IMG/VR virus record: IMGVR_UViG_3300045988_127105
Coordinates: 8,249-72,248 of that record
Length of the DNA: 64,000 nt
Reading direction: 5' to 3' (one strand)
Source: a virus
Both the position numbers and the translations under genes were made by a program. Under the pieces are notes generated by a model. The model made no database searches and had not been told where the DNA came from. It saw only the letters and a program-made list of their open reading frames with translations. Shown here one piece after another: positions 26,401-64,000 of this stretch (within the stretch, counting starts at the first letter, position 1; the number at the start of each line of letters is the position of its first letter).

Positions 26401-29400
26401 CGCTTGGTCTATTAGGTTTTGCGTTAGCGTCTTCTCCTCCTTCTCCGACGGGAGAATCCATCCTTCCACTTCGTAGTATATCATCGTTTATTCTTTTATA
26501 AAGTTCGTCATAACTCTTCACGGCTTCCGCTCTTGCCTTGTCCTTCACTGGCGGATAGGCATTCTCGTCAAAGCGTCGTCCGTTTATTAATATAATGCGT
26601 GTCGGGTATGTTGTGCCCTGCTTTGCGTACAGGCTTCCATCCACGTTTATCACGTCCTCCACATTATAGTGGCTGTAGAGAAAACCAAGCAGAGCCTTAT
26701 CCTTCGGATTCAGACTTCCGTTCTTGGCGTATTCCGTCTTGCCGCCGATGATGATGGCTGCACGACCGTTGTCTTTCATGCTCTCCAAGGCATTGATAGC
26801 CATCTGTCCCTCCAAAGAAGAAATCTTGTAGCCGTCATATTCCTTAGTGGTAGCACTTCCAAATGGTGGGTTTGTCACAACCACGTCCACGTCCTTGTCC
26901 GCGAACGGCTGTGTTCCGTCTTGGCTTGTTATGTTCTTGAAGCCTTGTCTCTGCAAGTTTGCAAGTCGCTGTGCGTCGATGTCGTTCACATGTACAGCAT
27001 CCTTTGGCAAGCCGATTGTCAGCATTCCGTTTCCGGCACTTGGCTCCAATGCGCTCTTTACTTCAATTCCTGCCTTCACGTACATGTCTGCAAGGAATGC
27101 GTAAGGCGCAGGTGTGGAATACTGCTGCTTCATCACTCTCTCTGAGTCACGCTGATTAAGGCTCGGCTGATTCTCGTAGAGTTTCTTTATACGTTTGAAC
27201 TTCTCGGTATTATTGGTTGACTCCGAAGAAGCGATACCTCTCGCTCTATGTACGATGGCTGTCTCTGCAAGTTCCTGCAAGTCCGTGTCCTTCACGTCTT
27301 TCAGTCCGCATTTTTCTGCCATCTTTCTCAGCTCCACAATGCCGTTAAACTTATGACCGAAACCAAGCTGAATGTTAACTTTATCAACAAATCTTTTCTC
27401 GCGTAACTTTCTATCCTCTGCTTCCTTGGAGTCGCCCACAAGCTCCTCCTTGTGCTTAGGCGAACTCTTCTCGTAGTAGTCTGCCCATTCTTTCAAACTC
27501 ATGCGCTGCTCGCCGTCGCGATAGCGAATGTTCATCATCTGCTCGTAGATGGCATCCACATCTTCCTTCTTGAACACCTGGGCTGCTGGAGCAAACTCCT
27601 TGCGCATTTCTTTCACCACGTCTTCAAGATTGTGCATACCTCTCTTTATTCTTAGGTAAGCGTTCTCTGCCATTGCGCTCACAAGCTTAGGCAACACTTC
27701 AAGCTGTCTTGCATTAAGCCCAATGAACGATGCCGACAAATCCTCTCTGCCTGCTTTCAGCAAGTCGTTCCAAAGGTCGTTAACCTTCTTGTTCGACGCT
27801 TCCACAGCTGCATCGTCTGCCTTTTGCTGAGGCTTCTTCACTTCGCCCATAGCTTCTGCTGCAGCCTCTTTCTCTTTAGCAAACTTCTCGGCAGCGTTCT
27901 TTAGTCCCTCAATAGGGCTTGCTGAGGCTTCCACCTTAGGAGTTTCGGTAGTTTCTGTTTTATTATCCGCTTGCTTAGTGGCGTTTTTCATCTTCGCATC
28001 CTTCACCTTTTCATAGATGCTCTCATAAACGGCACGATGCAAATCATCCGTCACCTCGCCATTCAGATAATCCACCGCCATATCCTTAGCAATGTCGTCC
28101 ACATCGCTACTCCTAATCTCGCCCTCAGTCAAAGGATGGTCTTTCTTGTAGTTCTCCGCAGCCTTACCAATCGGATCAAACGCTTTCTCTTCTTTCTTAG
28201 GAAGAATGGCAAGCGGTTCCTCACCCTTCGGCGCTGTAGCGTCTTTTATATCGCCCTTCGGTGTTACAACACCCTCAACCTTACTATCGGATTCTTCACT
28301 CTTCACTTTTCCCTTTTCACTTCCCCTCGGGTCCACTCCCTTAGCCCAGTCTGCCAGCACCTTGTCTGCCACTTCCTCAGCCGTAGTAAAGTGAATGCCA
28401 AGCACATCTGCAACGCCCTTCCAATACTTTGTCAGAGCCACCTTTACTTTTTCCAGGAATCCTTGTGCCTTCGCGCTCTCAGTCACGCTCTTGCCTTCCT
28501 CCGCAGCAAGCTTTCTCACCACGTCCTCAAGCTTCTTCGTTCCCTCGCGTCCCGAGTAGGTTGTTATCATTTCCTCATACAAGGCGTCGCCTTCCAGTTC
28601 GGGGTACAACTTCTGCACCTCTTCCTTCAGACCCTCCACCTTGTCGAAGAGCTTCTTCACATTCTCCCACTCCTTGGGGTTCACCTTACGCAGCATGTCA
28701 CACCACAAGTGCGCATACTCATGCAATGGTGTCTCCGGCTTCATCTTCTTCGTGTCGAGATAAATCTTCTCTCCGTCAGTAAAGCCATACACCTCACCTT
28801 TCGCAGTACGGAACTCCTTCACGCTGTTGTCTATCTGCAAGCCTCTCTTCAACGCCTCGTTTATCTGGTCCGACTTCTTCACGCCCTTTTCGGGTGCGCC
28901 AATCTTGAAGCCTGCCTTCTCAAACTCTATGCGCTGTCTTGGTGTCAGCACGTTCTCGGGTATCTCAACCTTAGCGTCGCCCACAAACTCCTTGGCTCTC
29001 TGTGCAACCTCAGCGTCCGACAACACTCTCACGGGCTTGCACCAACGAGAGAGAATAACCTTTCTTGCACGACCAGTCTGCTTGTACACCTCGCCACTTA
29101 CAACACCACTCTTCCAGTCTACCTCACCTACAGCGTCCTTGGCTCTTTCTGCCTTGTACCCGCTGCTCAGTTCGCTCACCGGAACCTCGCATTCCACGAC
29201 AACGATGTTCGGGCGAATCCAAGCCGACTTGAACTGGTCGTTCAACGGCGAGCGTGAAGTATGCCAATACGGATTGTATGCAGCAGGAATGTCCGTAGCC
29301 TTCTTGCCAGTCGCATCCTTGCCGCCCTTGTCGAGCTTGAACTTCCATTTCAGTTCGCCCGTCTTCTTGTCTACCTTCTGTTCTTTGGTCTTCGAGTCAA

Positions 29401-32400
29401 TATCGGGAATAGCCAAGTCTGGGTTCTCGTCTGCACGTATCCACACGCCAAGCTCGTTAGCCTCCACACGCTTGCCGTTCACGGCTGCTGCCATTGGAGG
29501 ATAGAGCTTACCGTCTATCACCTGCATCGCACGATACACCTTTACGGTCTCGCCATTCTCAAGCTCCTCAAGTGTAGCCTCGTCAGTCTCCTTGTGGTAC
29601 TTCAAGTCCGAATCGGTCTCCTCGCTCTCACGGATCACCTCCTCAGCTTCCTTCTCGTCCGTCACCACCTCAATACCAGTCTTCTTGGTTATCTCCGTAG
29701 CGATCCGCTTGATAGCCTTGTCTACTTCTCGCTGACCTTTTCTTGCTTGAACGTCTCTATCAGGGCTTCCTCCATTGTCATTCCCGGGTTTGCCTTCCTT
29801 ATCTCCCTCCAATGGGCCACCGTTTTCTTCGGTAGATACATCATCGATATTCTTCCGCTCGAGTGTCTTATCTCCACTCTTTGCAAGTCCTTCTTTTCTT
29901 CTTCTGTCATTTTCTCGTTCTTTTAATGATTTTTCTGATATGTTTAATAGAGTAGGATTATCTGTAATTTCAGACATTGCATCCTTGCCGTGTTCTTGTG
30001 CGTATGTTACAAGATGTGCTAAAGCTTCGTCGGCAAGCATATAAAGCGCATCTGTATCATCCATTTCCGAAGCTCGTTCTGTATACTCTTTCATATTTGA
30101 CAGAACTTCAACAACTCGTTCAAGTTCCTCTCGTGTAAGAGTATTCATATCTGTTATCGAATATACAAGAGCCTCGACCCTTGAAGGGTCTACTTCATTG
30201 TCCGCATGAACCGACTCATGCTCAAATGTCTCACGCAATTCTTCAGAGCCAGTACTGCCTTCAAGGTATATATGAATCTTACCATCTTCGTAATATCCTG
30301 GATAATGAGCACCCTCTGGCATATTTTCGATAATGGTCTTATCATTTTCTGTTTTCGCCGCATCCGCCAAGTCCTGCTTCGTCCTCAACACAACAGGCTC
30401 GTCATACCCATTACTCTTGGCAAACTCTTTCACATACTCTCCCATTTGGTCGAGTATACGCTCACGTTCTTCACCCTTGGCTTCCTTAAGCTGCTCTACG
30501 GCTTTGTTGTAGTCTGCTTCGCTTGTGATGACGTTTCCTCCTGGTGCTTGCGGTTCAGTTCCCTCAGAGCTGCCAGCATCGCCATTTCCTTCTTTGCTTG
30601 AATGTCTTGTTTCATAGTTCTTCCAGTTTCTAAGTTTCAAAAATTCCTTTATAAACTCTTCATTCGTAGGTCTCTCGCCGAACATTTCCGTCTGGTTGGC
30701 GTCAGCATAAGGAGCGGCATTTCTGTTATACGCCATCATCAGCTCACGGAAGTCCTCAACCTTACCCTCCAGAGCAAGAGCAATAGCCTGAGATATAGGG
30801 TCAAATCTGTCCGCAGCGTTCTCGCCAAACATAGCAGGAGTGCGCAAGTATGCATCCACACCGCTTCCGCCTTGACGAGCTTCGTACAGCAACTGCACTG
30901 CCTGGTCTATCTCCTTCATCAGAGCATAGTCGCCAAGTTTCATATTGTCCGTCACGGCACGGATGCCGTTCAGAGCCTTGGTTTTCAGCATAGCGTCAGC
31001 GCCCATCATGCGGATAGTGTTCTCCGAGAACACACTGCCCAATAGCAGGTTCTTCACGAAGTCCTTGCCTGCTGCCGAAAGCTTGTCCTCGCCCTCACGC
31101 AATCCCGCTATCTCGTTCAGACCAATCACGCCCTTATCAATTAAACGCTTTAGCAACGAGTTTATTGCAGTAGGATTGTTAAAGAATGCGTCAAGACTGC
31201 CACTGCCCTCTATCTCGGCTATAATGGCACCTACCTCGTCAGTACTTAACACCTTGGCATTCTTTACCGACTGCTCTGTATTGCCAATACTCTTGGTCTC
31301 TTGCCTGTTGAAAAGGTCAAATGTCTTACTTGTAAGCGGCATCTTTTTGTCGGGTACAAAATATACTGTACCCTTAAAGCCTGCCTCTTCTATTTGCTTT
31401 GGAGTCCAGCCGAAGCCTTCTGCGTTTTCACTTAGGCTCTCATAATACTTGCCGTCAGTACCATAGCGTTCCGCAAGTTGTTTACCCATTGTCGTGCCAT
31501 TTCCGCTTAACAGAATACCATCCTGCACAACTGGCACATTCTTTAGTGCTTGTCCGCCAAAGTCTCTGCCAATTTTCTCTGTAAACAGACGCGACTCCTT
31601 GTCTTTGTAAGAACGTGAGTTTGAGGAAGACCCGTCTTCATTAACTGGGAACCCCTCGTTCTGCTTAAAGTCATTAAACGGATCGTGCGAAGGTGTAAGT
31701 CCTGAAACCTCGCCATAAAAGTATTGACCTGTTATCTTAGTTCCGTCAGGAAGAGTGATAGAACCACGTCGTCCGGGAATCTTCTTTGATTTCTCGAACT
31801 TCTCTCGCACAGCAACACTCACTTCACCTACCGAACCTACACTACCTTCTTCACCTACACTACCTACCTTCTCCATTCCAGCCTTAACCTTATTCGCGGT
31901 CATTACCTTCTTGATATTGGTATATAGCTCCAGCTCTGCTTTGGCGGCATCAACCGCCTTCGTCTTCTGAGCCTCAGCTTCCTTGGCGTCGTTCAAATCT
32001 CCCGTGTAGTCCACCTTTATTTTTTCGGCTTCCTTCAGCATCTTCTCGGCTCTCTTTATCTGTCCGTCTACAGCAGTTTCTGCGTTCTCGCCAAACTGCG
32101 AAGACATCCACTCCGCTCCCTGTTCAGGTGTCATTTGCGAATAGTCAGCAGTCTCACGGCCTTTCGTGTCCTTCATCATCGGCACAGGTGACCCATCGGC
32201 AAATGTTAAAGTTTCGTTACTTCCATTGCCATTATCGGATGGATTCTTTTTTTCTCCTTCCCCTATAGGCTTTACATCTTCAACTCCAGGCGCCGACGCG
32301 CCCTCCTTCGGTGTTACAACACTCTCAGTCTTAGTATCGGATTTTTCACTTTTCTCTTTTACCTTTTCACTCTCAGCGTAAGCCACCGAGTTCATAACCT

Positions 32401-35400
32401 CCAACATCTCCTGATAGTTCTTGGCATAGTCCTCCGTCTTTTCCACATGGTCAAGCTGCACGTCCTTCTTGCTTACGAAGTCCATTTCCTTTGTATTCGG
32501 GTCAAGCACGCTAAGCATGTCGCCAACGTTTTCTCTCGCTCTACCTTCACTATCAAACGCAACATCGCCAGCTCCAACAATCAGCAGTCTGCCATTGTTG
32601 TCCTTCACAAACAACATCTGGCCGCCCTCTTGCTTCTCGCCGTTCAGCTCGCCCTTGTAGCTCCATTGCTCCACATGTTTCTGCACGGTCTCAGCAATCT
32701 TCTGTTCAGTTCCGCGATACATGCCCACAGCCTTAGCCTTGGCGTTGATATAGTCGGCAAAAGGTGCAAGCTGTTCCTGCGTCAGTCCCGAGTTTATCAG
32801 CTCCATGTATATCTGAGGTTCCGAAAGACCCTCCTTTGTCAGTCTCTCATACTCCTGCTTCAACACATCGTTGCTTTCCAAGGCTGCATTAAACGCCTTC
32901 TCTGCATTCTTCATGTTGTTCAGCACCTCATCCACAGCCTCGTTGTTAGGATTCTCCGTGCCAAGGTTATTCTCCTCAACCACGTCCTTGCCCTCTGTCT
33001 GCGACTGGTCGGGATGCAACGTTCCTTCCGGGAACTGTTCTCCCTCATAAGCCTTTCTCAGAGCCACACAAGCGTTCTGTTCCTCCTCGCTACGCTTCAA
33101 CGGGTCTTTGTCCATAGCTGCCTTCAACTGTTCAGCAGTAAAGCCAAACGTCTCAGCTACAGTCTCCAATGTTTCTTGTGCCGTTTTTTCGTCCTTTATC
33201 TGAGCTGCACCATAGGCATTACTCAAACGTTGGTTTTCGCGTCTCAGTCTGAGTGAGTAAACTACAGAGTCTCGTTCGTCTTCAGTTTTGACGATATGTT
33301 CTGACAATAGCTCTCCATATTTACTATACTCGCTTATAGTGCCTCCTCCATAACCAATATACTCCATCATAGGACGTGACGAAGGAACCGTTCCCATAAC
33401 CAAAGCAGAGAACTTAGCCTTTGTGTCCCAAGGTATTGTATTGTCTGCCATTATCTCATCATAGGCAGTCTTCACAAATTCAGCGTCCGTATCCTTATAC
33501 GACTCCTCGCCCTTTCCTCTGGCTGTTGTCTTCTTGGTTCGCAATGCCCAATGAGTAAATCCTTCCGGTCTTAACGGCATGTCTTCTATAAGCCTTTCGT
33601 ACATTTTTCGTAACGGTGCCTTGTTACTTCCGAACAACTGTTCTTTCTCCTCATTGGTGAATGTATATCCACCAAATGATGCTCGCTGACCGTCAGACAC
33701 CATAAGGTTGGCAAGGTTTCTCTTCACCATGTCAAGATAGCTTTCCTTTTTGCCATCCTTCGTATAACGATTAGGCAGTCTTGCGTGTGTCAGCTTCAAG
33801 GCTACAACGTTGGCACAAGCCTCAAGTGTGCCTTCAACGCTCCAGAAGTCGGTATCATGTCCCTCTATCATCTTGGCGACATTACCACCGACGTGCATAC
33901 CCCAACCTTCCATCGCTATTTGAAACACCTTGGCTGGAATACGCTTCACGCCACTCACATTATAGATTCCTGCACCTACAGCACCACCAATGCCACCCAT
34001 AGTAGCCCAGCTTGCGCCCTCAGAAAGACCGCCCATAGTCATAAGCTTCACGGTATTGCCTATCGAAGTGTCGTCGCCAGTAGAGTAGTTCTGCACGGCT
34101 GCATTCGTCGAACCGTACAGCACACCCGTCACGCCTTGACTCACAGCACCCGCTGTAGCCATTCTGACGATACGACCGCGCAATGACGTGTTCGCTATTC
34201 TTGCAGCCTGGGCTACTCCGTTACCCATAACCTTGCCTGCCACGGCTGCACCAGCCTTTCCTAATGCACCAAACACAGGAGCGTCTGCAGCAAAGCTCAA
34301 TGTTCCGCGTGCCACTCTCGCACCCATACCCGGTTTAACATAAGGATTTTCCCCGTTGTCGGTCATAGCCATTCCTTGCTGAGCATACTGTCTCTGCTTC
34401 TTCGACATCATACCCATCGACAAGATAGTGCCTATCATCGAGTCGTTGACACCACGGATGATATATTCTGCCGTACTCTTAGGCATATTACGGCTCAATT
34501 CGCTCTTCTCAAACTCCTCAGCTATCTTTGCTTGCAAGCCAGGAGCTATATAATTCTTTACATAATCCTCTGGGTCGATACCTAACGAAGCTGCCTTTTC
34601 TGCTATTTCCTTCTGCATCTTCGGGTCGGAGAACAACCCAGCCATGTCTTTCTCGGCATTCTTGCTGAGCTGATTCATTAGCTTGTCAGGATCAAGGGCT
34701 TCATTGTAAGCCTTACCTGCTGCCATATATGCAAATGGAGAGGCCTTGCTCAAAGCATCTTCTGCTGCAACACCTTTAACTGTCGCATCCTTAAACATCT
34801 TTTGGATACTATTGTTTATATATCCGCCAAGCTGTTTGTCAACAAGCTGTCTGCTGCTTTCTTCCAACTCATCCTCCAACTGTCCGCGTGTCTTAACAAT
34901 ATTGTTGTTCACGTCCTCGTTCCCAAGGTCAAAGGCAGGAGCATTACGTCTGTCTCGCTCACGGTTTGTAAATTGTCTTCCTGCCTGCTCCACATTCTGC
35001 CCCACGATATGCTGTCTCTCCCTTGTCTGCTTCACCATCTGTTTCACAGCACCCGGCTTTGTGTAGCTCACGGGAGCCTGTAATCTCTGTACGGCATTCG
35101 CATTCTTCAATCCGCGCACAAGCTCGCTATCATTCTCCATCGGCGCTGAAGCGCTCTCATATGCCGTAGTGTTTCCATGTGTTACAACACCACCGCCCCA
35201 CTTCTCTTTCGCCACGCTCTGTTGTGCTCTGCCTAATGCGGTCTTTGGTTGCTGCTGAGGCTTTGTCGCTCTTGGCTTCTGCAACTTGCGCATAAACTCC
35301 TCATACGAACCACCCAAGTCAGCACCATTCTTTGTGAACAGGTCGTACACAGCCTTTCTGTTGGCATAATTGCTGTTACCAGTAAACTTCTTTTCGAATG

Positions 35401-35476
35401 TATTATAGTCCTGGCTATAGCCGTTGTCAGCCATAAGCTTGTACATCCTCTGCAACTTACTTCTATCTATTGCCAT
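17435..35476 (-). CDS. giant polyvalent multi-domain protein (6,013 aa) with a DarB-like methyltransferase-helicase core
   Basis: Uninterrupted ATG..TAA ORF.
- MTase motif I EPSAGNG: aa 2811, nt 27026-27046.
- MTase motif IV NPPF: aa 2869, nt 26861-26872.
- Helicase motif I GDMTGIGKGR: aa ~3240.
- Helicase motif II DESH: aa 3390, nt 25298-25309.
- Helicase motif VI QMRGRIDRTGQ: aa 3772.
- HESVH at aa 1753, HEYAH at aa 2252, HETVGH at aa 4741.
- Gly-rich hydrophobic region aa ~380-510; TM-like segment aa ~5640-5665. Confidence 0.9.
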   Translation of the reverse strand: MAIDRSKLQRMYKLMADNGYSQDYNTFEKKFTGNSNYANRKAVYDLFTKNGADLGGSYEEFMRKLQKPRATKPQQQPKTALGRAQQSVAKEKWGGGVVTHGNTTAYESASAPMENDSELVRGLKNANAVQRLQAPVSYTKPGAVKQMVKQTRERQHIVGQNVEQAGRQFTNRERDRRNAPAFDLGNEDVNNNIVKTRGQLEDELEESSRQLVDKQLGGYINNSIQKMFKDATVKGVAAEDALSKASPFAYMAAGKAYNEALDPDKLMNQLSKNAEKDMAGLFSDPKMQKEIAEKAASLGIDPEDYVKNYIAPGLQAKIAEEFEKSELSRNMPKSTAEYIIRGVNDSMIGTILSMGMMSKKQRQYAQQGMAMTDNGENPYVKPGMGARVARGTLSFAADAPVFGALGKAGAAVAGKVMGNGVAQAARIANTSLRGRIVRMATAGAVSQGVTGVLYGSTNAAVQNYSTGDDTSIGNTVKLMTMGGLSEGASWATMGGIGGAVGAGIYNVSGVKRIPAKVFQIAMEGWGMHVGGNVAKMIEGHDTDFWSVEGTLEACANVVALKLTHARLPNRYTKDGKKESYLDMVKRNLANLMVSDGQRASFGGYTFTNEEKEQLFGSNKAPLRKMYERLIEDMPLRPEGFTHWALRTKKTTARGKGEESYKDTDAEFVKTAYDEIMADNTIPWDTKAKFSALVMGTVPSSRPMMEYIGYGGGTISEYSKYGELLSEHIVKTEDERDSVVYSLRLRRENQRLSNAYGAAQIKDEKTAQETLETVAETFGFTAEQLKAAMDKDPLKRSEEEQNACVALRKAYEGEQFPEGTLHPDQSQTEGKDVVEENNLGTENPNNEAVDEVLNNMKNAEKAFNAALESNDVLKQEYERLTKEGLSEPQIYMELINSGLTQEQLAPFADYINAKAKAVGMYRGTEQKIAETVQKHVEQWSYKGELNGEKQEGGQMLFVKDNNGRLLIVGAGDVAFDSEGRARENVGDMLSVLDPNTKEMDFVSKKDVQLDHVEKTEDYAKNYQEMLEVMNSVAYAESEKVKEKSEKSDTKTESVVTPKEGASAPGVEDVKPIGEGEKKNPSDNGNGSNETLTFADGSPVPMMKDTKGRETADYSQMTPEQGAEWMSSQFGENAETAVDGQIKRAEKMLKEAEKIKVDYTGDLNDAKEAEAQKTKAVDAAKAELELYTNIKKVMTANKVKAGMEKVGSVGEEGSVGSVGEVSVAVREKFEKSKKIPGRRGSITLPDGTKITGQYFYGEVSGLTPSHDPFNDFKQNEGFPVNEDGSSSNSRSYKDKESRLFTEKIGRDFGGQALKNVPVVQDGILLSGNGTTMGKQLAERYGTDGKYYESLSENAEGFGWTPKQIEEAGFKGTVYFVPDKKMPLTSKTFDLFNRQETKSIGNTEQSVKNAKVLSTDEVGAIIAEIEGSGSLDAFFNNPTAINSLLKRLIDKGVIGLNEIAGLREGEDKLSAAGKDFVKNLLLGSVFSENTIRMMGADAMLKTKALNGIRAVTDNMKLGDYALMKEIDQAVQLLYEARQGGSGVDAYLRTPAMFGENAADRFDPISQAIALALEGKVEDFRELMMAYNRNAAPYADANQTEMFGERPTNEEFIKEFLKLRNWKNYETRHSSKEGNGDAGSSEGTEPQAPGGNVITSEADYNKAVEQLKEAKGEERERILDQMGEYVKEFAKSNGYDEPVVLRTKQDLADAAKTENDKTIIENMPEGAHYPGYYEDGKIHIYLEGSTGSEELRETFEHESVHADNEVDPSRVEALVYSITDMNTLTREELERVVEVLSNMKEYTERASEMDDTDALYMLADEALAHLVTYAQEHGKDAMSEITDNPTLLNISEKSLKERENDRRRKEGLAKSGDKTLERKNIDDVSTEENGGPLEGDKEGKPGNDNGGSPDRDVQARKGQREVDKAIKRIATEITKKTGIEVVTDEKEAEEVIRESEETDSDLKYHKETDEATLEELENGETVKVYRAMQVIDGKLYPPMAAAVNGKRVEANELGVWIRADENPDLAIPDIDSKTKEQKVDKKTGELKWKFKLDKGGKDATGKKATDIPAAYNPYWHTSRSPLNDQFKSAWIRPNIVVVECEVPVSELSSGYKAERAKDAVGEVDWKSGVVSGEVYKQTGRARKVILSRWCKPVRVLSDAEVAQRAKEFVGDAKVEIPENVLTPRQRIEFEKAGFKIGAPEKGVKKSDQINEALKRGLQIDNSVKEFRTAKGEVYGFTDGEKIYLDTKKMKPETPLHEYAHLWCDMLRKVNPKEWENVKKLFDKVEGLKEEVQKLYPELEGDALYEEMITTYSGREGTKKLEDVVRKLAAEEGKSVTESAKAQGFLEKVKVALTKYWKGVADVLGIHFTTAEEVADKVLADWAKGVDPRGSEKGKVKSEESDSKVEGVVTPKGDIKDATAPKGEEPLAILPKKEEKAFDPIGKAAENYKKDHPLTEGEIRSSDVDDIAKDMAVDYLNGEVTDDLHRAVYESIYEKVKDAKMKNATKQADNKTETTETPKVEASASPIEGLKNAAEKFAKEKEAAAEAMGEVKKPQQKADDAAVEASNKKVNDLWNDLLKAGREDLSASFIGLNARQLEVLPKLVSAMAENAYLRIKRGMHNLEDVVKEMRKEFAPAAQVFKKEDVDAIYEQMMNIRYRDGEQRMSLKEWADYYEKSSPKHKEELVGDSKEAEDRKLREKRFVDKVNIQLGFGHKFNGIVELRKMAEKCGLKDVKDTDLQELAETAIVHRARGIASSESTNNTEKFKRIKKLYENQPSLNQRDSERVMKQQYSTPAPYAFLADMYVKAGIEVKSALEPSAGNGMLTIGLPKDAVHVNDIDAQRLANLQRQGFKNITSQDGTQPFADKDVDVVVTNPPFGSATTKEYDGYKISSLEGQMAINALESMKDNGRAAIIIGGKTEYAKNGSLNPKDKALLGFLYSHYNVEDVINVDGSLYAKQGTTYPTRIILINGRRFDENAYPPVKDKARAEAVKSYDELYKRINDDILRSGRMDSPVGEGGEDANAKPNRPSVADVNEEGVRAGGNGGGEQKPSVRTGGVHDKTAEPVSDNVLGTEGGTKPGENGGLPDGATGANGAGAEPTPSKEPTTGTNKQRGNEPGGNGRPNTQPNADETTDAGNGGRPRGQLERVDRPVRGLSAEKVAYTPRSENPFTLKAVMPADQQDAVNKNLEKLGDADQFLVDELGYNDKADLYAHLAAEQVDSVALALQQAKKGNAFIIGDMTGIGKGRQAASLIRYAKKQGQVPVYFTKTAGLLSDVYRDLVDIGSKELRPFVFGSAKEAAITDADGNVVFALPSKSEVKRVLDYIEKNGELPKEYDYVLTTYSQVSNGVYEFDENGNRKERKLAKGKKFGAAAISGQARRDAIEKLMKNGYLILDESHTAGGDSGQGNYFQHIIQKAKNVTFFSATFAKRPDNMPIYALRTAMNQGGLKASDLIDAVKRGGATLQEIMSQALTQCGQMIRRERDMTGVTIDWKAIDDPEVVAEQREQYDSIIGLFNDIINFQRTYVSAYVDRRNEELAEVQSSMGIKRGTEALGIKNQPFASKAFNTVQQVLLSLKAKSAAERAIDYLKQGMKPVIALNNTNESQTGNLALGEEMDAPDLGTSLKKGLEGTLRYTSKNAKDESESGYINLSDLGADAVEAYHALEEKIRKTSTGLSLSPIDVIKNELTKAGYKVGELTGRQTEFAYNENGTVTKVKRADTDKKKLAREFNDGQIDALILNKSAATGISLHASSKYADQRKRVMIVAQQQLDVNDEVQMRGRIDRTGQVARGAYEYVVSLIPAEQRLLMMFKAKLKSLDANTTSSQKSKFNEMEVADITNKYGDKVVKEYMAEHLDLYARMADPFGWEKSYGADLSAVDPQKLVSSSDGMSSEAGGDASKLLGRMALLKVKEQEKMLQEIGDLYAAEIQRLNEMGENDLEITELPLKAKTINKGVWKEGSEPGGDNAFADNTYVEKVNMAVLKKPMKAEEVKKAQDGLTGGKSWDEYKKEKKKAIEDYFINKAKEEGAKIEERARKAAAKAREKHLKDALRNQKNSGMTDEQIAQMAIYQQDNIYKVENEKGEEVVKNLKAKAEMFYRILETFNTEDAFVLPTDMNNPAELSGFGNSYGRLIDIKITDNFSPNASTVSFATLDGRRKITFPINGKAGLGSDKADVIGIIDRLTRQASAMGDNHLRVLSMDTSNWDKLTSNESRKDGYIITGNLLQALIDTKEQGLGGQLVKYTTDTGDVKTGILMPGNFEPNGLANEKPINSVAEKFELPSNKGGITEVTSSDGDVKIEQGFDYMKMARNYTIRVPKSNKKGGKYFLDKELLKMVDGGNFETRGNTMLAEVKEEKLKDVLDRLSELGVKVKEESKVHYRMELGDTFSDSKEHFDAVRDRAVEEKGIVMPNLNKEKVKVVEVEKSPFGNNIETSLKNAREWARENLVTMGKTEMPTMRDGTPYIISKRAVEKYLSESAVRKSENLDIHLSVLPKLTDVIHESIEAEIHADYNVKDETGKRKAELGYGNNILVHRLYGAVEMDGKIYRVKTTMQEFRGGEENKPHSYEVTKIELPDTPGTAVLPDSSPLDMTPSNSKNITSEGSEKANESDSLPLNSTTNGYISTAKLLQGVEKSYDSGKKLLDESKNLTDGETFFRKEGDGVVTPEKTSGTSNAVSERIIKTVEKVAKRTGGKVKMVNSVEEIENPKVRKDIENGKQVTGWYDEKTGEVHLYMPNIHDSYTAEKTVWHETVGHKGMRGLLGDKFNDYMRGLWMDLDNPINAELRAYVKEKMNMNHLGFYDAIEEFIAKSAEDGKGEPGFWNYIKNKVTDALHEIGYRVSPNVKAVKYMLWLAKNVQKHGDSPLWKMRAEAVRWKIEHEKTEYTKIEGGELYDNDGKSHDFEGMSREEWLEATDGEIHYRTAPSAATALDRYHHALDRHSYMATEAFMDNMLSLKKLMEAIDPSIRKIEDVNSSMNPYLMQNITEGMMSDKSKLFEIRYMDPLSKAMSSVLDSFDGKKVEDRIRNFNLYMIRKHGLERNRVLFVRDWIRSEKGKVKSEESDSVDALETAWKDERSDLRKKLDSGQIDLKEYYRQMDEWIVQNLDKDFKAEEHDYSGMHGLQGIDDMKSPYDDAGAIDEVVSQEASMESMKKGSVADFWKKVKAATDYSVNSDYENNIITKETHDGVLNMFDWYVPLRKFDEATAEDVYGYVTEMGDPSNYIGTTLMNAKGRKSLSNVEILAQIGLMGNRAIRNGGQNSIKLAFARFVRNSGEQNLVKETKVWVEKTGTDLNGNDIWEEAYPQIPEGASADDVASIVDAFETDMRTKQAKGEAKSLSNGTDIGFKFQRAKDKSQHFVDVKIAGRTHRFVVLGNPRAAQALNGMLENGKASVRSLQAVTRWMAMASTSWSPEFVMRNIVRDMEFASSHVAAKEGGRYLAKWSRYYGELNPLNMFYNEGAGSLKSMKMKDFKNGVGFGLYARYREGTLGNSKMERYFKEFMENGGETGFVQLFSMHDMEKSYKSIVEKESAKGAKKVMVNAVEVLKKLGENVENLNEVAENMARFATYCTSRDLGRSAARSAYDAKEVSTNFNRHGSGDAIKSFKNGEMGDWQKARRNTYGFVAGYLRNYSMFFNAGIQSTNLLFKNIKRAPVGTTVAMTSAPFALALIMAAVNNAIIQNEDDKDRGNVKDPYGELPDYIRRNNLCIYVGNNKFVTVPLAIELRAFYSLGDLAAGQTFAKNVKSQRNMAMDAVGCMSQLFPVMDFLNNPNYEKSLENGVGMTTEGIAPTAIVPFIEWWLNNDWKGAPIRRTGDKTELNPAWQNAYNNVPARLVDLNKWVNAKTNNIAPGNPEMKGNEVLDWATDPSMLNHFFGSWSGGMGTFTQRTAGLVAKATTGKTDEIEVGDVPFLRSLFYTPREQSSMARTKAKWYNYKEEMEQTIANNDKLNSKNVPTMKRIENAAALEKFEGSPEQRKVNIIKNAEKRMRHWNTMRKKWADDKKQVDFANKNIEMIMQEAVEDLDRIE

Positions 35477-61151: not shown

Positions 61152-61267
61152 GTTATATTTTGTTTTATAGTTTCGTAGTAAAATATTGTTCTATTCTCAC
61201 GAACCGAACAATAAGAGCTTTGTTTATTGAATTTTAAATCATCAGAAATATGAGAATGAAATTATCG

Positions 61268-61347
61268 TGGGGGCAGAGGGAATCGAACCCTCACATCGGA
61301 ACCATCTCTTTATAACTCTACGCTACCCAAGCCGTAGTCACGCCCCC
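61268..61347 (-). tRNA. tRNA-like element (anticodon arm not foldable by eye)
   Basis: Minus sense reads GGGGGCG-TGA-CTAC-GGCTTGG-GTAG-...-GAGGG-TTCGATT-CCCTC-TGCCCCC-A. It has a 7-bp acceptor stem, a D-arm with GG, and a canonical T-arm. The middle 25 nt (CGTAGAGTTATAAAGAGATGGTTCC) give no anticodon stem. No CCA is encoded. Confidence 0.45.
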
Positions 61348-61487
61348 TTTTTAAAACTGCCCTATACTCACGCACCAGACAGCCGGAAACTAAAATCATG
61401 AAAGTGCAGCCACTGCTGCTTCCTAACAATAAAAACATTTTACAATCAATATGAGCTTATCAATTCATTCCTATATAAAAATCCTTA

Positions 61488-62160: not shown

Positions 62161-62270
62161 AGCATTGGTTTTTAAAGATTTTAAAAAACTGCCTATCCTC
62201 ACGAACCAACAGCCCGAATAATCTAACGGCACAGACTCCTCCGTGTCACATCTTAAACAAACTGCTTTAA

Positions 62271-62290
62271 TATCTGATTGTCAGCTTTCT
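62271..62290. repeat. left copy of a perfect 20-bp inverted repeat
   Basis: TATCTGATTGTCAGCTTTCT, the exact reverse complement of 63839-63858. Confidence 0.95.
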
Positions 62291-62494
62291 CTATTCTTCA
62301 AACATCGGCAATCTCACCTTCCTTCCCCCTAAGGAGTCCAAGGCCATCTTGCGTATGTTCTGTGCCACGCTCGAGTGCGAACGGTAAGCAAGCGCATTGT
62401 ACACAGCTGTTCTTTTATATCCAAACCGATTCATCAGTACGGAAATTTGTTCCTTTGGAACAATTATTTTCGTTTTATTTATCAACTTTGCCAT
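62291..62494 (-). CDS. small DNA-binding-like protein (Cro-like position)
   Basis: ATG at 62494 (MAKLINKTKI...), 67 aa. ISVLMNRFGYKRTAVYNALAY is HTH-like. Its TAG abuts the left inverted-repeat copy. Confidence 0.55.
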   Translation of the reverse strand: MAKLINKTKIIVPKEQISVLMNRFGYKRTAVYNALAYRSHSSVAQNIRKMALDSLGGRKVRLPMFEE

Positions 62495-62530
62495 ATTATC
62501 TGTATATTTGCACAATAAATAAGTTTATGT

Positions 62531-62598
62531 AACGGTTGTAAACCGTTTTACCGATGCAAATGTACAACTATATGGGCAACTGCCCAAATATTTGGGCA
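62531..62598. promoter_or_regulatory. palindromic operator candidates between divergent HTH genes
   Basis: AACGGTT-gta-AACCGTT at 62531-62547. TGGGCA-ac-TGCCCAAATATTTGGGCA, including the perfect 18-bp palindrome at 62581-62598. A minus-sense -7 candidate TACATTTG lies at 62557-62564. Confidence 0.6.
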
Positions 62599-62659
62599 TA
62601 AAACTACTTTTTATTTATATATTTTTACATATGATTACATTAATAAACATTTTACAGCT

Positions 62660-63022
62660 ATGAAAACCATTATCGAACGCCTCGAAGCCCTACGCCGACA
62701 TTACAACCTCTCGGCTCGTGGTCTTGCCGATCGTCTTGACCAGCGTCCGTCTACGGTCGTAAACTATTGCAACGGCTCACAGCCACCTAAGTTGGAGTTT
62801 ATCGAACACGTGTTACAACTCTTCCCCGACATCTCTGCGGAATGGCTAATACGAGGCAAAGAGCCAATGCTCGTCACCGAGCATCCCGACCTTGCCGTGC
62901 TTAAGAAGAAGTACGAGACAGAAATACTCGTCAAGGAAGGCATCATTAAAGAGTTGCGCTCCATTATTCTGGAGAAGAACCAGAACAAGCAGTCTCCCGA
63001 CCGTCAACAACTTGTAGGGTAG
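62660..63022 (+). CDS. HTH transcriptional regulator (CI-like candidate) with a C-terminal coiled coil
   Basis: 120 aa. LSARGLADRLDQRPSTVVNYCNGSQPPKLEFIEHVLQLFPDISAEWLIRGKEPM matches the phage-repressor HTH pattern. Confidence 0.75.
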   Translation: MKTIIERLEALRRHYNLSARGLADRLDQRPSTVVNYCNGSQPPKLEFIEHVLQLFPDISAEWLIRGKEPMLVTEHPDLAVLKKKYETEILVKEGIIKELRSIILEKNQNKQSPDRQQLVG

Positions 63023-63072
63023 TCCCGTTATACCCTTGGCTTAAAAAAGACGATTAAAGCCGACAAAAAAAA

Positions 63073-63098
63073 GGTAGCTGTCCTCACGGATGGCTACC
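63073..63098 (-). terminator. intrinsic terminator (minus sense)
   Basis: Minus sense reads GGTAGCC-ATCCGTGAGGACA-GCTACC followed by T8. Confidence 0.7.
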
Positions 63099-63411
63099 TT
63101 ATCAATAAGGTTATGCAACTAAAAACGTAAATAATAACAACTCTTATATTAATTTCTTCGCGACTTCTCTATACCATATCGACTTTTAAAAGTTTTGTCT
63201 AAAATAAAGAGAAAGAAACAAAGAGAAAATACAATAATTTATCATCAATATTCTTCATTAAACTTCTAAAAGAGTTTCAGAAGGTTGAGGCTTTTTGAGC
63301 AGACTCTCCCCTTATAGAGGACTTGAAAATCCGTCTATAAGTGAGAGTCTGTATAACGATGAGTCCCGTCAGGATCAACCCCCGTCACCACCACTTGCCA
63401 GCTAACGACAG

Positions 63412-63561
63412 TTAGTGTATGAAGCTTTCGGTGTTCGCTACCGTCCTTCCCGCGTCTTCTTCAATCAACTCTTGCGCTTCTGCCCTGGGTCCCACTTGCA
63501 GTGTTTGTTTCAAGTCGAAATGTTGCGTGGTGTATTTAGCCGTCTCTTCCACTCCGACCAT
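63412..63561 (-). CDS. 49-aa ORF inside the structured non-coding region (weak)
   Basis: Hand-translated as MVGVEETAKYTTQHFDLKQTLQVGPRAEAQELIEEDAGRTVANTESFIH. Lies between a minus-sense -7 candidate (63698-63705) and the terminator at 63073. Confidence 0.25.
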   Translation of the reverse strand: MVGVEETAKYTTQHFDLKQTLQVGPRAEAQELIEEDAGRTVANTESFIH

Positions 63562-63815
63562 TTTGAATGGGGACAAAAAAAGAGTCCCCATTCAAAAGCT
63601 CGTGTAACGCTCCGAACTTTGAACGAGGACTCCACATATGTTGATTGAAGTATCCTAAATGCGCCTTATGTTAGTGCGTTACTACTAAAAAGCGATACAA
63701 AGATACGTTTTCTTGTTCATCCGACCAAATTCACTTTACATTCGTTAACACCATAAAAAATCATAATTCCGTAAACTATTTTATAAAATAGTTTGCTTGT
63801 TACCCAGAATTTACC

Positions 63816-63823
63816 TAACTTTG
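63816..63823 (+). promoter_or_regulatory. Bacteroidota-type -7 box TAACTTTG with a -33-like TTTG
   Basis: Exact TAnnTTTG plus CA. TTTG at 63792-63795 sits about 20 nt upstream. The promoter fires toward the right inverted-repeat copy. Confidence 0.6.
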
Positions 63824-63838
63824 CACCATAAAAACCAA

Positions 63839-63858
63839 AGAAAGCTGACAATCAGATA
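63839..63858. repeat. right copy of the perfect 20-bp inverted repeat
   Basis: AGAAAGCTGACAATCAGATA. Confidence 0.95.
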
Positions 63859-63924
63859 GTTACAATATATTATAAGTGAACCCTGCGAGGTCACTTTTAG
63901 ACAATATTGCTTTTTATTTGATTG

Positions 63925-63961
63925 TATCGCTAACAGCTTCTTTACCAAGCTGTTAGCGATA
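63925..63961 (+). terminator. 15-bp perfect hairpin (terminator or structural RNA element)
   Basis: TATCGCTAACAGCTT-CTTTACC-AAGCTGTTAGCGATA followed by TTATGCTTTGTG. Confidence 0.5.
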
Positions 63962-64000
63962 TTATGCTTTGTGTAAGCTGCTGCTAATAAACGAGTTACA

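Follow-up and report, generated by a model that had tools for sequence, protein, structure and literature searches.

In phages 186 and P2, one small protein (Apl and Cox, respectively) is both the excisionase and a regulator of the switch, with sites at att and at the early promoters; for Apl, binding occurs at att and at the pR-pL switch (PMC7498355). In attP sites of the lambda type, accessory sites for Xis, IHF and Fis lie between the integrase arm-type sites and the core (PMC2817482). Asymmetric sites within transcribed DNA are represented by the stoperators of cluster A mycobacteriophages (PMC9283540). The 64-kb window analyzed here (the whole stretch of 64,000 nt) represents, in its circular (attP) form, a temperate Prevotella/Segatella phage of ~71 kb that integrates into the 3' end of a tRNA gene. 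It carries a 20-bp inverted repeat with one copy beside the Cro-position gene (L copy) and the other within attP (P copy), and the features of this region are collected in Table 1.

Table 1. Features of the cro-cI-attP region, in window coordinates
Feature	Position	Strand	Details
Left terminator-like hairpin	62183-62218	-	conserved loop GGTTCGTGAGGATAG and U-run
Small hairpin downstream of L	62230-62245	-	CACGGA-GGAG-TCTGTG
Element C	62245-62270	-	directly after L copy; homologous to the bottom strand of 63895-63914
L copy of 20-mer	62271-62290	-	sense AGAAAGCTGACAATCAGATA; top-strand letters TATCTGATTGTCAGCTTTCT
Cro-position gene	62291-62494	-	67 aa + stop; divergent from CI-like gene
Palindromic operator	62582-62597	.	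GCCCAAATATTTGGGC; overlaps -33 element of cro promoter
CI-like HTH_3/HTH_19 repressor gene	62660-63022	+	120 aa
Variable cargo slot between cI and attP	63023-63790	.	no long ORF here
P-right, consensus Bacteroidetes-type promoter	63792-63823	+	TTTG -33 element (63792-63795), 20-nt spacer, TAACTTTG (63816-63823)
P copy of 20-mer	63839-63858	+	exact reverse complement of L copy; sense AGAAAGCTGACAATCAGATA
attP core	63876-63894	+	inverted half-sites GTGAACC/GGTCAC
P' inner arm	63895-63925	-	C' 63895-63914; B' ACAATCAAATA 63915-63925, an inverted partial copy of the 3' half of the 20-mer
Terminator-like hairpin T	63925-63961	+	15-bp perfect stem, U-rich tail

The inverted repeat and the early-operon side

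The original prediction took the inverted repeat to be exact and its chance occurrence to be negligible, and this was borne out. The two arms, 1548 nt apart, are the only matches to the 20-mer at ≤3 mismatches in the 64 kb; the shuffle expectation was 0.01 matches and none of 100 shuffles reached two. The repeat is conserved and the identity between its copies ends sharply at 20 nt in every lineage, with the flanks diverging. It is non-random and functional-looking. Both copies are sense-oriented in the outward divergent transcripts, each early in its unit or just after the first gene, as had been described. The L copy begins directly after the stop codon of the Cro-position gene (TAG, 62291-62293) and the P copy starts 14-15 nt after the -7 box of P-right, in all lineages; the abutting TAG and the promoter box 15 nt ahead of the right copy had both been placed correctly. 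The CUGA-CAA-UCAG mini-hairpin read in the 20-mer is present, but it is weak (4-bp stem, -2.0 kcal/mol) and its stem is broken without compensation in the P copies of lineage B and of L039. One compensated pair was found in L109, and L111 has independent small palindromes.

The gene ending at the L copy had been called Cro-size and HTH-like. Its size and position stand, and its AlphaFold2 model is confident (pLDDT 92.7) with a beta/three-helix/beta arrangement. Comparison of this model with the PDB gave no fold match, including to solved RDF or Cro folds, so the Cro label of this 67-aa protein is only positional. On the other side of the divergent promoters, the operator GCCCAAATATTTGGGC is unrelated to the 20-mer; in L073 it is changed symmetrically to GTCCAAATATTTGGAC while the 20-mer is constant. 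As a search probe, the CI-like protein retrieved close relatives only. The ~750 bp beyond the CI-like gene had been described as structured non-coding DNA. Here it indeed lacks a long ORF, with a hairpin lying at 63561-63597, but it is a variable cargo slot that holds RNase H, HNH or methylase genes in relatives.

Downstream of the L copy, the L copy and the next 25 nt form a mosaic duplicate of both attP inner arms. The homology of element C reaches the GTGAC half-site, with a score of 21 that was matched by 3 of 1000 shuffles. This L-side likeness emerges solely against the bottom strand of the P' arm; when the flank downstream of L was compared with the flank downstream of the right copy, in the geometry of the original prediction, no likeness was found beyond the 20-mer. 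The small hairpin that follows is compensated in relatives (ATGCGGA/TCCGCAT, AGCGGA/TCCGCT and GGACGGA/TCCGTCC). The left terminator-like hairpin is the first of three early-operon hairpins that have an invariant loop (GGTKCGKGAGNATAG) on different stems. A role of this left hairpin as a pseudo-core co-varying with the attP core was considered and rejected, as lineage B combines a tRNA-Lys core with the window-type left hairpin. The product of the first gene downstream is a conserved two-helix protein, small and basic, and p60 was modeled as a two-helix hairpin. The search for excisionase-like proteins gave a single weak match, a 98-aa HTH_17 protein with E = 5e-4, below the Pfam cutoff.

The attachment site

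No recombinase gene had been seen within the window, which is correct, and it had been advised to look beyond position 64000. A tyrosine integrase gene starts ~340 nt past the window end and encodes the Pfam domains Phage_integrase, Arm-DNA-bind_5 and SAM_5. Terminator-like hairpins had been placed after each copy of the repeat: the left one stands, but the right one (63876-63898) is the attP core, and the terminator-like hairpin on this side is T. The right 20-mer copy is therefore the innermost P-arm element, occupying ~+8 to +28 of the P-right transcript and ending 17 nt before the core.

Within the core, 63881-63894 (CCCTGCGAGGTCAC) matches the 3' end of the host tRNA-Arg(CCG) base for base, and both attL and attR junctions were recovered from public contigs. 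At attL, tRNA-Arg(CCG) is joined to the phage P' arm and int in four contigs (L102-L105), and in a sister lineage tRNA-Lys(UUU) is joined to P' with a matching core. At attR, sister-lineage contigs show P-right, the 20-mer and the core followed by host DNA, with P joined to the native tRNA-Lys trailer in five contigs. The P copy thus remains at the right end of the prophage in integrated contigs.

Three direct repeats at -86, -75 and -53 from int are putative integrase arm-type sites, and their motif is unlike the 20-mer. They are lineage-specific (GTATTACC, GTATTACA or TAATTATCAA), hold fixed positions and covary with the integrase lineage; together with the arm-binding domain of the integrase they complete the picture of an attP, the binding being predicted from sequence. 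The P copy lies inboard of these apparent arm-type repeats, across the crossover from int, between P-right and the core. A further partial inverted copy, A' (AGAAAGCTGATAA), is found in the P' arm ~55-67 nt past the window end. The motif AGAAAGCYGAYAA occurs only three times per phage, in L, in P and, on the inverted strand, in A', and exact ACAATCARATA is limited to L, P and B'.

Five of the six phage att regions examined have kept the -7 box of P-right, at positions -369 to -378 relative to the start of int; it is absent in L111. The P' inner-arm inverted repeat always abuts T, which in the lysogen is positioned between the host tRNA gene and int. As the promoter is on one side of the crossover, with T and int on the other, integration is bound to rewire the transcription of int. 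This splitting of promoter and terminator across the crossover point is an unusual anatomy. P-right was also considered as a late promoter in the style of lambda pR'/tR'; this was rejected because relatives with the opposite gene order have a convergent cI after P-right/attP/T/int, not lysis genes.

Conservation in relatives and the possible role of the element

The Cro-position protein was indexed in 129 blocks of the contig collection, and a search of GenBank phages with the 2.6-kb region gave no match. In related lineages the 20-mer pair is kept at corresponding positions, the kind of placement that the original prediction had proposed to look for, with 1-3 mismatches tolerated between the copies. 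The L copy is perfect, or changed only from A12 to T, where the Cro-position protein is only 50-60% identical. The elements lie at fixed distances from the stop codon, promoter and core. In L072 the 20-mer pair is kept, but L is no longer complementary to the P' inner arm. In relatives with the opposite gene order, the corresponding elements are direct repeats and not inverted.

Relatives with 57-71% integrase identity (L108, L110 and L111/L112) have different sequences, in which the site downstream of cro matches the att arms of the same phage. The scores of these own-arm matches were reached 0-2 times in 300 to 1000 shuffles; the match in L109 is weaker (22 of 300 shuffles). The relation of the element C type is much stronger in L108 (0 of 1000 shuffles) and is present in L110 and L111 as well. 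When sites were scored against arms across lineages, the matrix was largely diagonal, the sole exception being the L110 site, which scores 37 against the L108 arm and 32 against its own. For the most part, then, the site downstream of cro in distant relatives still corresponds to the attP arms of the same phage, and the two have co-evolved.

Our preferred reading, to which we assign a probability of about 0.4, is that one factor, specific to the phage, binds the 20-mers and through them acts both at attP and at the early operon. The sequences establish the anatomy, att junctions, conservation and the co-evolution of the site after cro with the attP arms; we infer action at the DNA level, binding by a protein and the outcome of that binding. 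One lineage-specific protein, a recombination-directionality or architectural factor or a regulator, would bind the 20-mer. At attP it would shape the recombination complex and would also cover the initial 30 nt of the P-right unit, whose transcription crosses attP in the direction of int; at the 3' end of cro its target would be transcription on its way into the early lytic operon. With one protein at both sites, a single molecule would govern integration/excision as well as the lytic program, which is the arrangement of 186 Apl and P2 Cox. The predicted accessory-site role fits the location of the P copy 17 nt from the core, the inverted partial copies in the other arm and the conservation. 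The constancy of the 20-mer, despite Cro identities of 50-60% and a changed CI/Cro operator, also argues for a shared factor, whereas the complementarity lost in L072 argues against it. Further points against a DNA-binding factor are the sense orientation of the full copies, the position of L at a stop codon, the abutment of the inner-arm repeat to T and the small palindrome of L111, whose spacer is 5 nt at one of its two sites and 7 nt at the other; these features fit RNA at least as well as DNA. Covariation of Cro, CI, p60 and the integrase N-domain singles out no binder, because all of them track phylogeny.

The 20-mer might instead act in both transcripts at the RNA level and not as DNA, which we regard as possible though rather unlikely. 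A P-right leader of ~135 nt would, in the circular form, cross attP and end at T, its 20-mer pairing with the stretch that immediately precedes T; the 3' UTR of cro (20-mer and element C) is complementary over ~32 nt to this pre-T segment, which in the lysogen becomes the 3' trailer of the host tRNA, so that integration would rewire an RNA-RNA interaction controlling int and/or early-operon read-through. The transcript-sense placement of both copies, at the cro stop and just past the -7 box in all lineages, favors this, as does the predicted duplex between L and the P' inner arm (-28.4 kcal/mol vs -11.0 +/- 2.4 for shuffled sequences), which is significant in eight of nine lineages with a largely diagonal matrix. 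In the window and in L108, L110 and L111, the lineages read for this, an L-homologous segment fills the core-to-T interval; the leader has a folding z of -5.2, and the small palindrome is compensated in a distant relative (CTGA/TCAG to CTAA/TTAG) with a varying loop length. For the mismatches of P to the reverse-complemented P' inner arm, a hand count over independent lineages gave five G-U-compatible transitions vs two, but this asymmetry is not significant, and between L and P' the count is about even. Other points weigh against RNA: A' is downstream of T and so would be present in read-through RNA only, the mini-hairpin is marginal and lost in two lineages, a search of Rfam at relaxed thresholds returned noise and no family match, and shared protein sites would equally yield every sequence relation used. 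No conserved partner exists for pairing with the 5' half of the 20-mer; this half can pair with the 5' arm of T in the window clade only (perfectly in the L039 variant) and not in L108, L109 and L110, so that its invasion of T as a cis or trans antiterminator was rejected. A fuller form of action as RNA, a switch dependent on the integration state and formed by the 20-mer and its neighbors, appears doubtful. In the free phage, the 5' 20-mer of the leader would pair with the pre-T segment; in the lysogen this RNA would be split and the pre-T segment made constitutively as the tRNA trailer, complementary to the cro/early-operon junction. The host tRNA promoter would then drive an antisense RNA for immunity or int control, with the P-arm 20-mer as a target mimic. 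A narrower special case is that of lambda-like nut sites, one of the two hypotheses of the original prediction; a hairpin and a purine-rich box would load a processive antiterminator that would let polymerase pass T on the right and the conserved-loop hairpins on the left. The geometry of nutL and nutR is indeed present, one copy just after cro and the other early in the opposite transcript, each before a predicted terminator; the compensated palindrome, the three invariant-loop hairpins, which suggest regulated termination, and the small basic two-helix protein of the first downstream gene also agree with it. Nevertheless, we consider it improbable, given a marginal 4-bp stem broken in the P copy of lineage B and L039, the opposite-strand partial copies in the P' arm for which it does not account, and a candidate protein gene that, unlike N, comes after the first terminator-like hairpin. 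Pfam and PHROGs searches of the neighboring genes gave no match to N, Q or a NusG-like protein, although small fast-evolving proteins could escape such searches.

The other proposal of the original prediction, which sees in the repeats either the recombination sites flanking a 1.55-kb inverton or the terminal repeats of a cassette that inserted here, is hardly tenable. A perfect 20-bp inverted repeat near a tyrosine recombinase gene invites it, one copy does lie within attP, and the L region is loosely similar to an att half-site, ending GTGAC. However, the integrase crossover is at the tRNA-derived core 63881-63894, outside the 20-mer. Inversion would be seen as a cro flank joined to GTTACAAT or a promoter flank joined to TTAAAGCAG; all 109 junctions (61 cro-side and 48 promoter-side), taken from fetched loci in public viral, metagenome and genome contigs, some of which share one contig, are parental and none is chimeric. 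The copies also differ by 1-3 nt in several viable-looking lineages, and relatives with the opposite gene order carry the elements in direct orientation. A cassette is made unlikely by the lack of a target-site duplication (flanks AATAG/TTAAAG vs ACCAA/GTTAC) and of an empty site, both copies being in place in every relative. Improbable as well is that the repeat has no present function, its copies being kept alike by gene conversion or being relics of module shuffling. The phage does encode RecT-type recombination functions and the region is mosaic, but the identity that stops at 20 nt in every lineage, the fixed positions relative to stop codon, promoter and core, and the same relation rebuilt from unrelated sequences in distant relatives all speak against it.

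With one copy inside attP, beside the copied tRNA 3' end, and the other a co-evolving duplicate at the end of the Cro-position gene, the element suggests that integration is linked to the lytic switch in these phages of gut Prevotella. The co-evolution of the cro site with the attP arm points to a direct link, physical or by RNA, from the integration machinery to the lytic switch. To our knowledge, such a link is known in the P2/186 group only, and here it is built differently. These phages are common in human-gut Prevotella/Segatella metagenomes, and the locus gives a testable model for the silence and excision of Bacteroidota prophages. If the element works as RNA, this would add a new means by which prophages turn a host tRNA gene to their own use.

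Comparison with known systems

The locus resembles 186 Apl and P2 Cox in that the same element is found in the attachment site and beside the lysis-lysogeny genes, which implies one factor for recombination and early transcription. The Apl/Cox sites are, however, direct-repeat arrays about one helical turn (about 10 bp) apart between divergent promoters, whereas here single asymmetric 20-bp sites are found, and the one away from attP follows the Cro-position gene. The first early protein also differs from a winged-helix RDF of the Apl/Cox type, its beta/three-helix/beta model having no RDF-like fold. With lambda-type attP sites the locus shares an arm-binding integrase, three direct repeats upstream of int and conserved elements before a tRNA-derived core; the extra inner-arm copy 1.55 kb away, the promoter across the core and the terminator in the P' arm set it apart.

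As in lambda nutL/nutR, an identical short sequence is present in both divergent transcripts flanking the immunity genes, and the left copy hugs the cro-position stop codon as nutR does. Unlike nut, the 4-bp hairpin is not always kept, no N homolog was found among the neighboring genes, partial copies are found on the opposite strand of the att arm, and the right copy lies inside attP. Stoperators number ~25-30 per genome in cluster A phages; like them, the 20-mer is asymmetric, lies within transcribed DNA in the orientation of the transcript, and is placed at the end of a gene and shortly after a promoter, but there are only two full copies in 64 kb and these are distinct from the palindromic cI/cro operator.

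Bacteroidales invertons are invertible promoters between inverted repeats, acted on by tyrosine or serine invertases. The present locus likewise has an inverted repeat near a tyrosine recombinase gene in a Bacteroidota genome, but no inverted junction was found, and it has a prophage integrase with a mapped tRNA att site and a 1.55-kb segment of two genes. In lambda sib, attP separates int from a cis-element, so that the integration state alters the int transcript. Repeated or complementary short segments around a putative small terminated RNA recall sib as well as the P4 CI and P1 c4 RNAs; the RNA is here predicted from sequence and, unlike sib, the element is upstream of int, on the promoter side.

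The 20-mer and the integration module

The perfect inverted repeat of the original prediction was found as described, with TATCTGATTGTCAGCTTTCT (left copy) and its reverse complement (right copy) separated by 1548 nt. These were the only two matches in the window when up to three mismatches were allowed (shuffle expectation 0.01), and the identity between them ended sharply at 20 nt. Each copy reads AGAAAGCTGACAATCAGATA in its own outward transcript. The left copy directly follows the TAG stop of the 67-aa gene in the cro position, and the right copy begins 15 nt past the promoter box TAACTTTG, both as claimed. A TTTG element lies 20 nt upstream of this box, a combination that fits the Bacteroidetes promoter consensus. 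The 20-mer is present in 13 IMG/VR contig stretches, and also in metagenome contigs and one Prevotella MAG.

That no recombinase gene is visible is true of the window alone, because the integrase lies outside it. Contig L001, the same phage in the same orientation, reaches 9.5 kb further and encodes a tyrosine integrase (domains Phage_integrase, Arm-DNA-bind_5 and SAM_5) ~340 nt past the window end, followed by a membrane protein, a GH19 endolysin and structural genes. Circular contigs gave a genome size of 71.1-71.5 kb. One minus-strand open reading frame (17435-35476) spans 6013 aa, which is unusually large for a 71-kb phage.

Contigs of sister lineages part ways exactly after GTGAcCCC(A)TGCGGATCAC, which corresponds to window 63876-63894, with some running on into the phage hairpin and int and others into host fimbrial or LRR protein genes. 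Prophage left ends were fetched using integrase homologs. In four contigs with a 99%-identical integrase, attL joins the 3' end of host tRNA-Arg(CCG), CCCTGCGAGGTCAC, which equals window 63881-63894, without a gap to phage TTTTAGACAATATTGC, the hairpin and int. A lineage with 78% integrase identity showed this junction type at tRNA-Lys(UUU), to which its own core matches, and attR in five contigs joins the phage P arm and core to the native tRNA-Lys trailer with its terminator. According to these junctions, what had been read as a terminator-like hairpin at 63876-63898 is instead the attP core, with inverted half-sites GTGAACC and GGTCAC around the tRNA 3'-end copy. Since attP is intact, the window represents a free or circular form of the phage.

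Features of the left site, the early operon and attP
Feature	Position	Description
Conserved-loop hairpin	~61185-61215 (-)	invariant 15-nt loop, U-run
tRNA-like gene	61267-61364 (-)	ARAGORN tRNA-???, 4-base anticodon
Conserved-loop hairpin	~61355-61390 (-)	
Conserved-loop hairpin	62183-62218 (-)	invariant 15-nt loop, U-run
Small hairpin	62230-62245	stem compensated in relatives
Element C	62245-62270	first 25 nt beyond left copy; sense TTAAAGCAGTTTGTTTAAGATGTGAC
20-mer, left copy	62271-62290 (-)	
cro-position gene	62291-62494 (-)	label positional only
cI-attP slot	63023-63790	
P-right promoter	63792-63823	box at 63816-63823
20-mer, right (P) copy	63839-63858 (+)	halves A AGAAAGCTG, B ACAATCAGATA
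Spacer	63859-63875	17 nt
attP core	63876-63894	
C'	63895-63914	
B'	63915-63925	bottom strand, ACAATCAAATA
Hairpin T	63925-63961	15-bp perfect stem, U-rich tail
A'	~55-67 nt past window end	bottom strand, AGAAAGCTGATAA
Three direct repeats, then int	downstream of A'	GTATTACC type

In relatives the three direct repeats lie at -86, -75 and -53 from int, and their sequence varies with the integrase lineage (GTATTACC, GTATTACA, TAATTATCAA). They are likely arm-type integrase sites, which would make the 20-mer a different, inner-arm element. In each phage AGAAAGCYGAYAA, with at most one mismatch, occurs only at the left copy, the P copy and A', and exact ACAATCARATA only at the left copy, the P copy and B'. 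Integration parts int from P-right. In the lysogen T separates int from the tRNA gene, a place at which it would halt read-through from the tRNA.

Between cI and attP lies a slot of variable cargo, which in relatives is occupied by RNase H, HNH endonuclease or DNA methylase genes; the window has no long ORF there, and all that the slot contains is a perfect 14-bp hairpin (63561-63597) along with a possible ORF of 59 aa on the minus strand. Host tRNA-Lys trailers at four attR flanks (L018, L114, L119 and L033) contain CAATCAA(A/C), which resembles half B of the 20-mer and stands just past the core with unchanged orientation; this may be chance. Large IMG/VR phage contigs (L055-L059; 70-128 kb, AT-rich by eye, lacking int) carry a tRNA-Arg(UCU) gene (L056, 60-230, for example) whose trailer and terminator are ~88% identical to the P' inner arm and T of this phage family; this reflects either capture of the tRNA gene from a lysogen attL or independent use of the trailer module.

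Co-variation of the cro-downstream site with the att arms

Element C aligns to the bottom strand of the P' inner arm (AAAGCAATATTGTCTAAAAGTGAC), and the alignment extends to the GTGAC half-site (score 21, equalled by 3/1000 shuffles). By this alignment the left site appears as a mosaic, having the 20-mer in common with the P arm and C with the P' arm.

Within the clade, flanks fall to 81-86% identity, but the 20-mers are unchanged or almost so; the P copies of L039 and of lineage B, which has a tRNA-Lys core, have 2-3 mismatches. Among relatives whose Cro-position protein is down to 50-60% identity, L073 has two perfect copies, L078 has T at position 12 in both, and L077 has it in one. Between the window and L073 the CI/Cro operator changed symmetrically (GCCCAAATATTTGGGC to GTCCAAATATTTGGAC) while the 20-mer remained constant, suggesting that the 20-mer is probably read by a different factor from the operator.

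Relatives at 57-71% integrase identity have other sequences, yet their post-cro site matches their own att inner arms. The site resembles the P' bottom strand in L108 (40 nt; 0/1000 shuffles) and L110 (1/300), both arms in L111/L112 (0-2/300) and, more weakly, the att region in L109 (22/300). The cross-lineage score matrix is mostly diagonal, the sole off-diagonal exception being the L110 site (37 against the L108 arm, 32 against its own). In L108 and L110, with the gene order attP, int, cI, cro, the equivalent elements form direct and not inverted repeats on the DNA, and the sense relative to cro transcription is retained. This co-variation is the strongest evidence for a functional link between the cro-downstream site and attP.

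The family has two genome arrangements. In the window type, attP-int separates cI from the lysis/structural genes; in L108 and L110 it has the structural genes on one side and cI on the other, and all modules run in one direction. The difference implies a large rearrangement, one end of which was at the attP module.

Three hairpins of the early leftward operon carry one invariant 15-nt loop, GGTKCGKGAGNATAG, unchanged even in relatives at 67-71% integrase identity. Their stems are unrelated yet compensated (CTGTT/GGCAG, CTGTC/GGCAG and ATTGTTC/GAACAAT), with a U-run after each. They resemble a set of terminators or processing sites that a factor would recognise, and they are better boxB-like candidates than the 20-mer. 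The tRNA-like gene that begins within the second of them has a weak Rfam tmRNA-clan match and could be a suppressor-type or processing tRNA-like element.

Action on DNA or on RNA

The proposal that the repeats bound an inverton or inserted cassette was rejected, subject to raw-read checks. Among all fetched loci no chimeric junction was found, all being parental (61 cro-stop/20-mer/TTAAAGCA and 48 promoter/20-mer/GTTAC); the integrase crossover falls at the tRNA core, and copies can differ by 1-3 nt.

Action at the DNA level ranks first, at a probability of about 0.4. A single phage-specific protein would bind at the P-arm 20-mer, at its partial counterparts in the P' arm and at the cro 3'-end copy. 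This explains most simply why both arms contain partial copies in inverted orientation, A' past the terminator among them. As precedents, 186 Apl and P2 Cox each work on att as well as on the switch (PMC7498355), and arm-binding integrases normally have accessory sites located from the arm-type sites inward to the core (PMC2817482).

Action at the RNA level comes second and seems to us less likely than not. From P-right to T a ~135-nt RNA is predicted (fold z = -5.2), and the cro 3' UTR is predicted to pair with the core-to-T segment, the tRNA 3' trailer in the lysogen, at -28.4 kcal/mol (shuffles -11 +/- 2.4), a pairing that holds in 8/9 lineages. Counts of G-U-compatible and incompatible transitions (5 vs 2 and ~4 vs 4) did not separate DNA-level from RNA-level action, and pairing of the 20-mer 5' half with T as an antiterminator is not conserved outside the window clade. 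A special case of RNA-level action, the nut-like sites originally suggested, is quite improbable. Their transcript geometry stands once the right-hand terminator is taken to be T and not the attP core, the left copy adjoins the cro stop as lambda nutR does, L109 has a compensated pair (CTGA/TCAG to CTAA/TTAG), and L111 has independent small palindromes with spacers of 5 and 7 nt at its two sites. However, two lineages have lost the CUGA-CAA-UCAG hairpin (-2.0 kcal/mol), neighbouring genes gave no N-, Q- or NusG-like match in Pfam or PHROGs, and the bottom-strand copies B', C' and A' are left unexplained. The likelihoods attached to these readings overlap and are not additive.

For DNA-level action, several candidate binders can be named. 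The cro-position protein (PHROG 16858) has a confident model (pLDDT 92.7) of beta/three-helix/beta form, to which no solved fold matched at E < 1, and may represent an undescribed small regulator family. The first gene past the left site, p60, encodes a conserved basic two-helix protein, and a 98-aa protein encoded past the lysis genes gave a weak match to the excisionase-type HTH_17 domain, below the Pfam cutoff. Identity patterns among the candidates all follow phylogeny and therefore single out none.

The 20-mer is a real, conserved, functional-looking element, and its context alters the meaning of the repeat: it is part of the integration module of a tRNA-integrating Prevotella phage, with a co-evolving copy at the lytic switch. 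The kinds involved are known, attP accessory architecture and Apl/Cox-like coupling, and what is found here is a variant of them rather than a new category.
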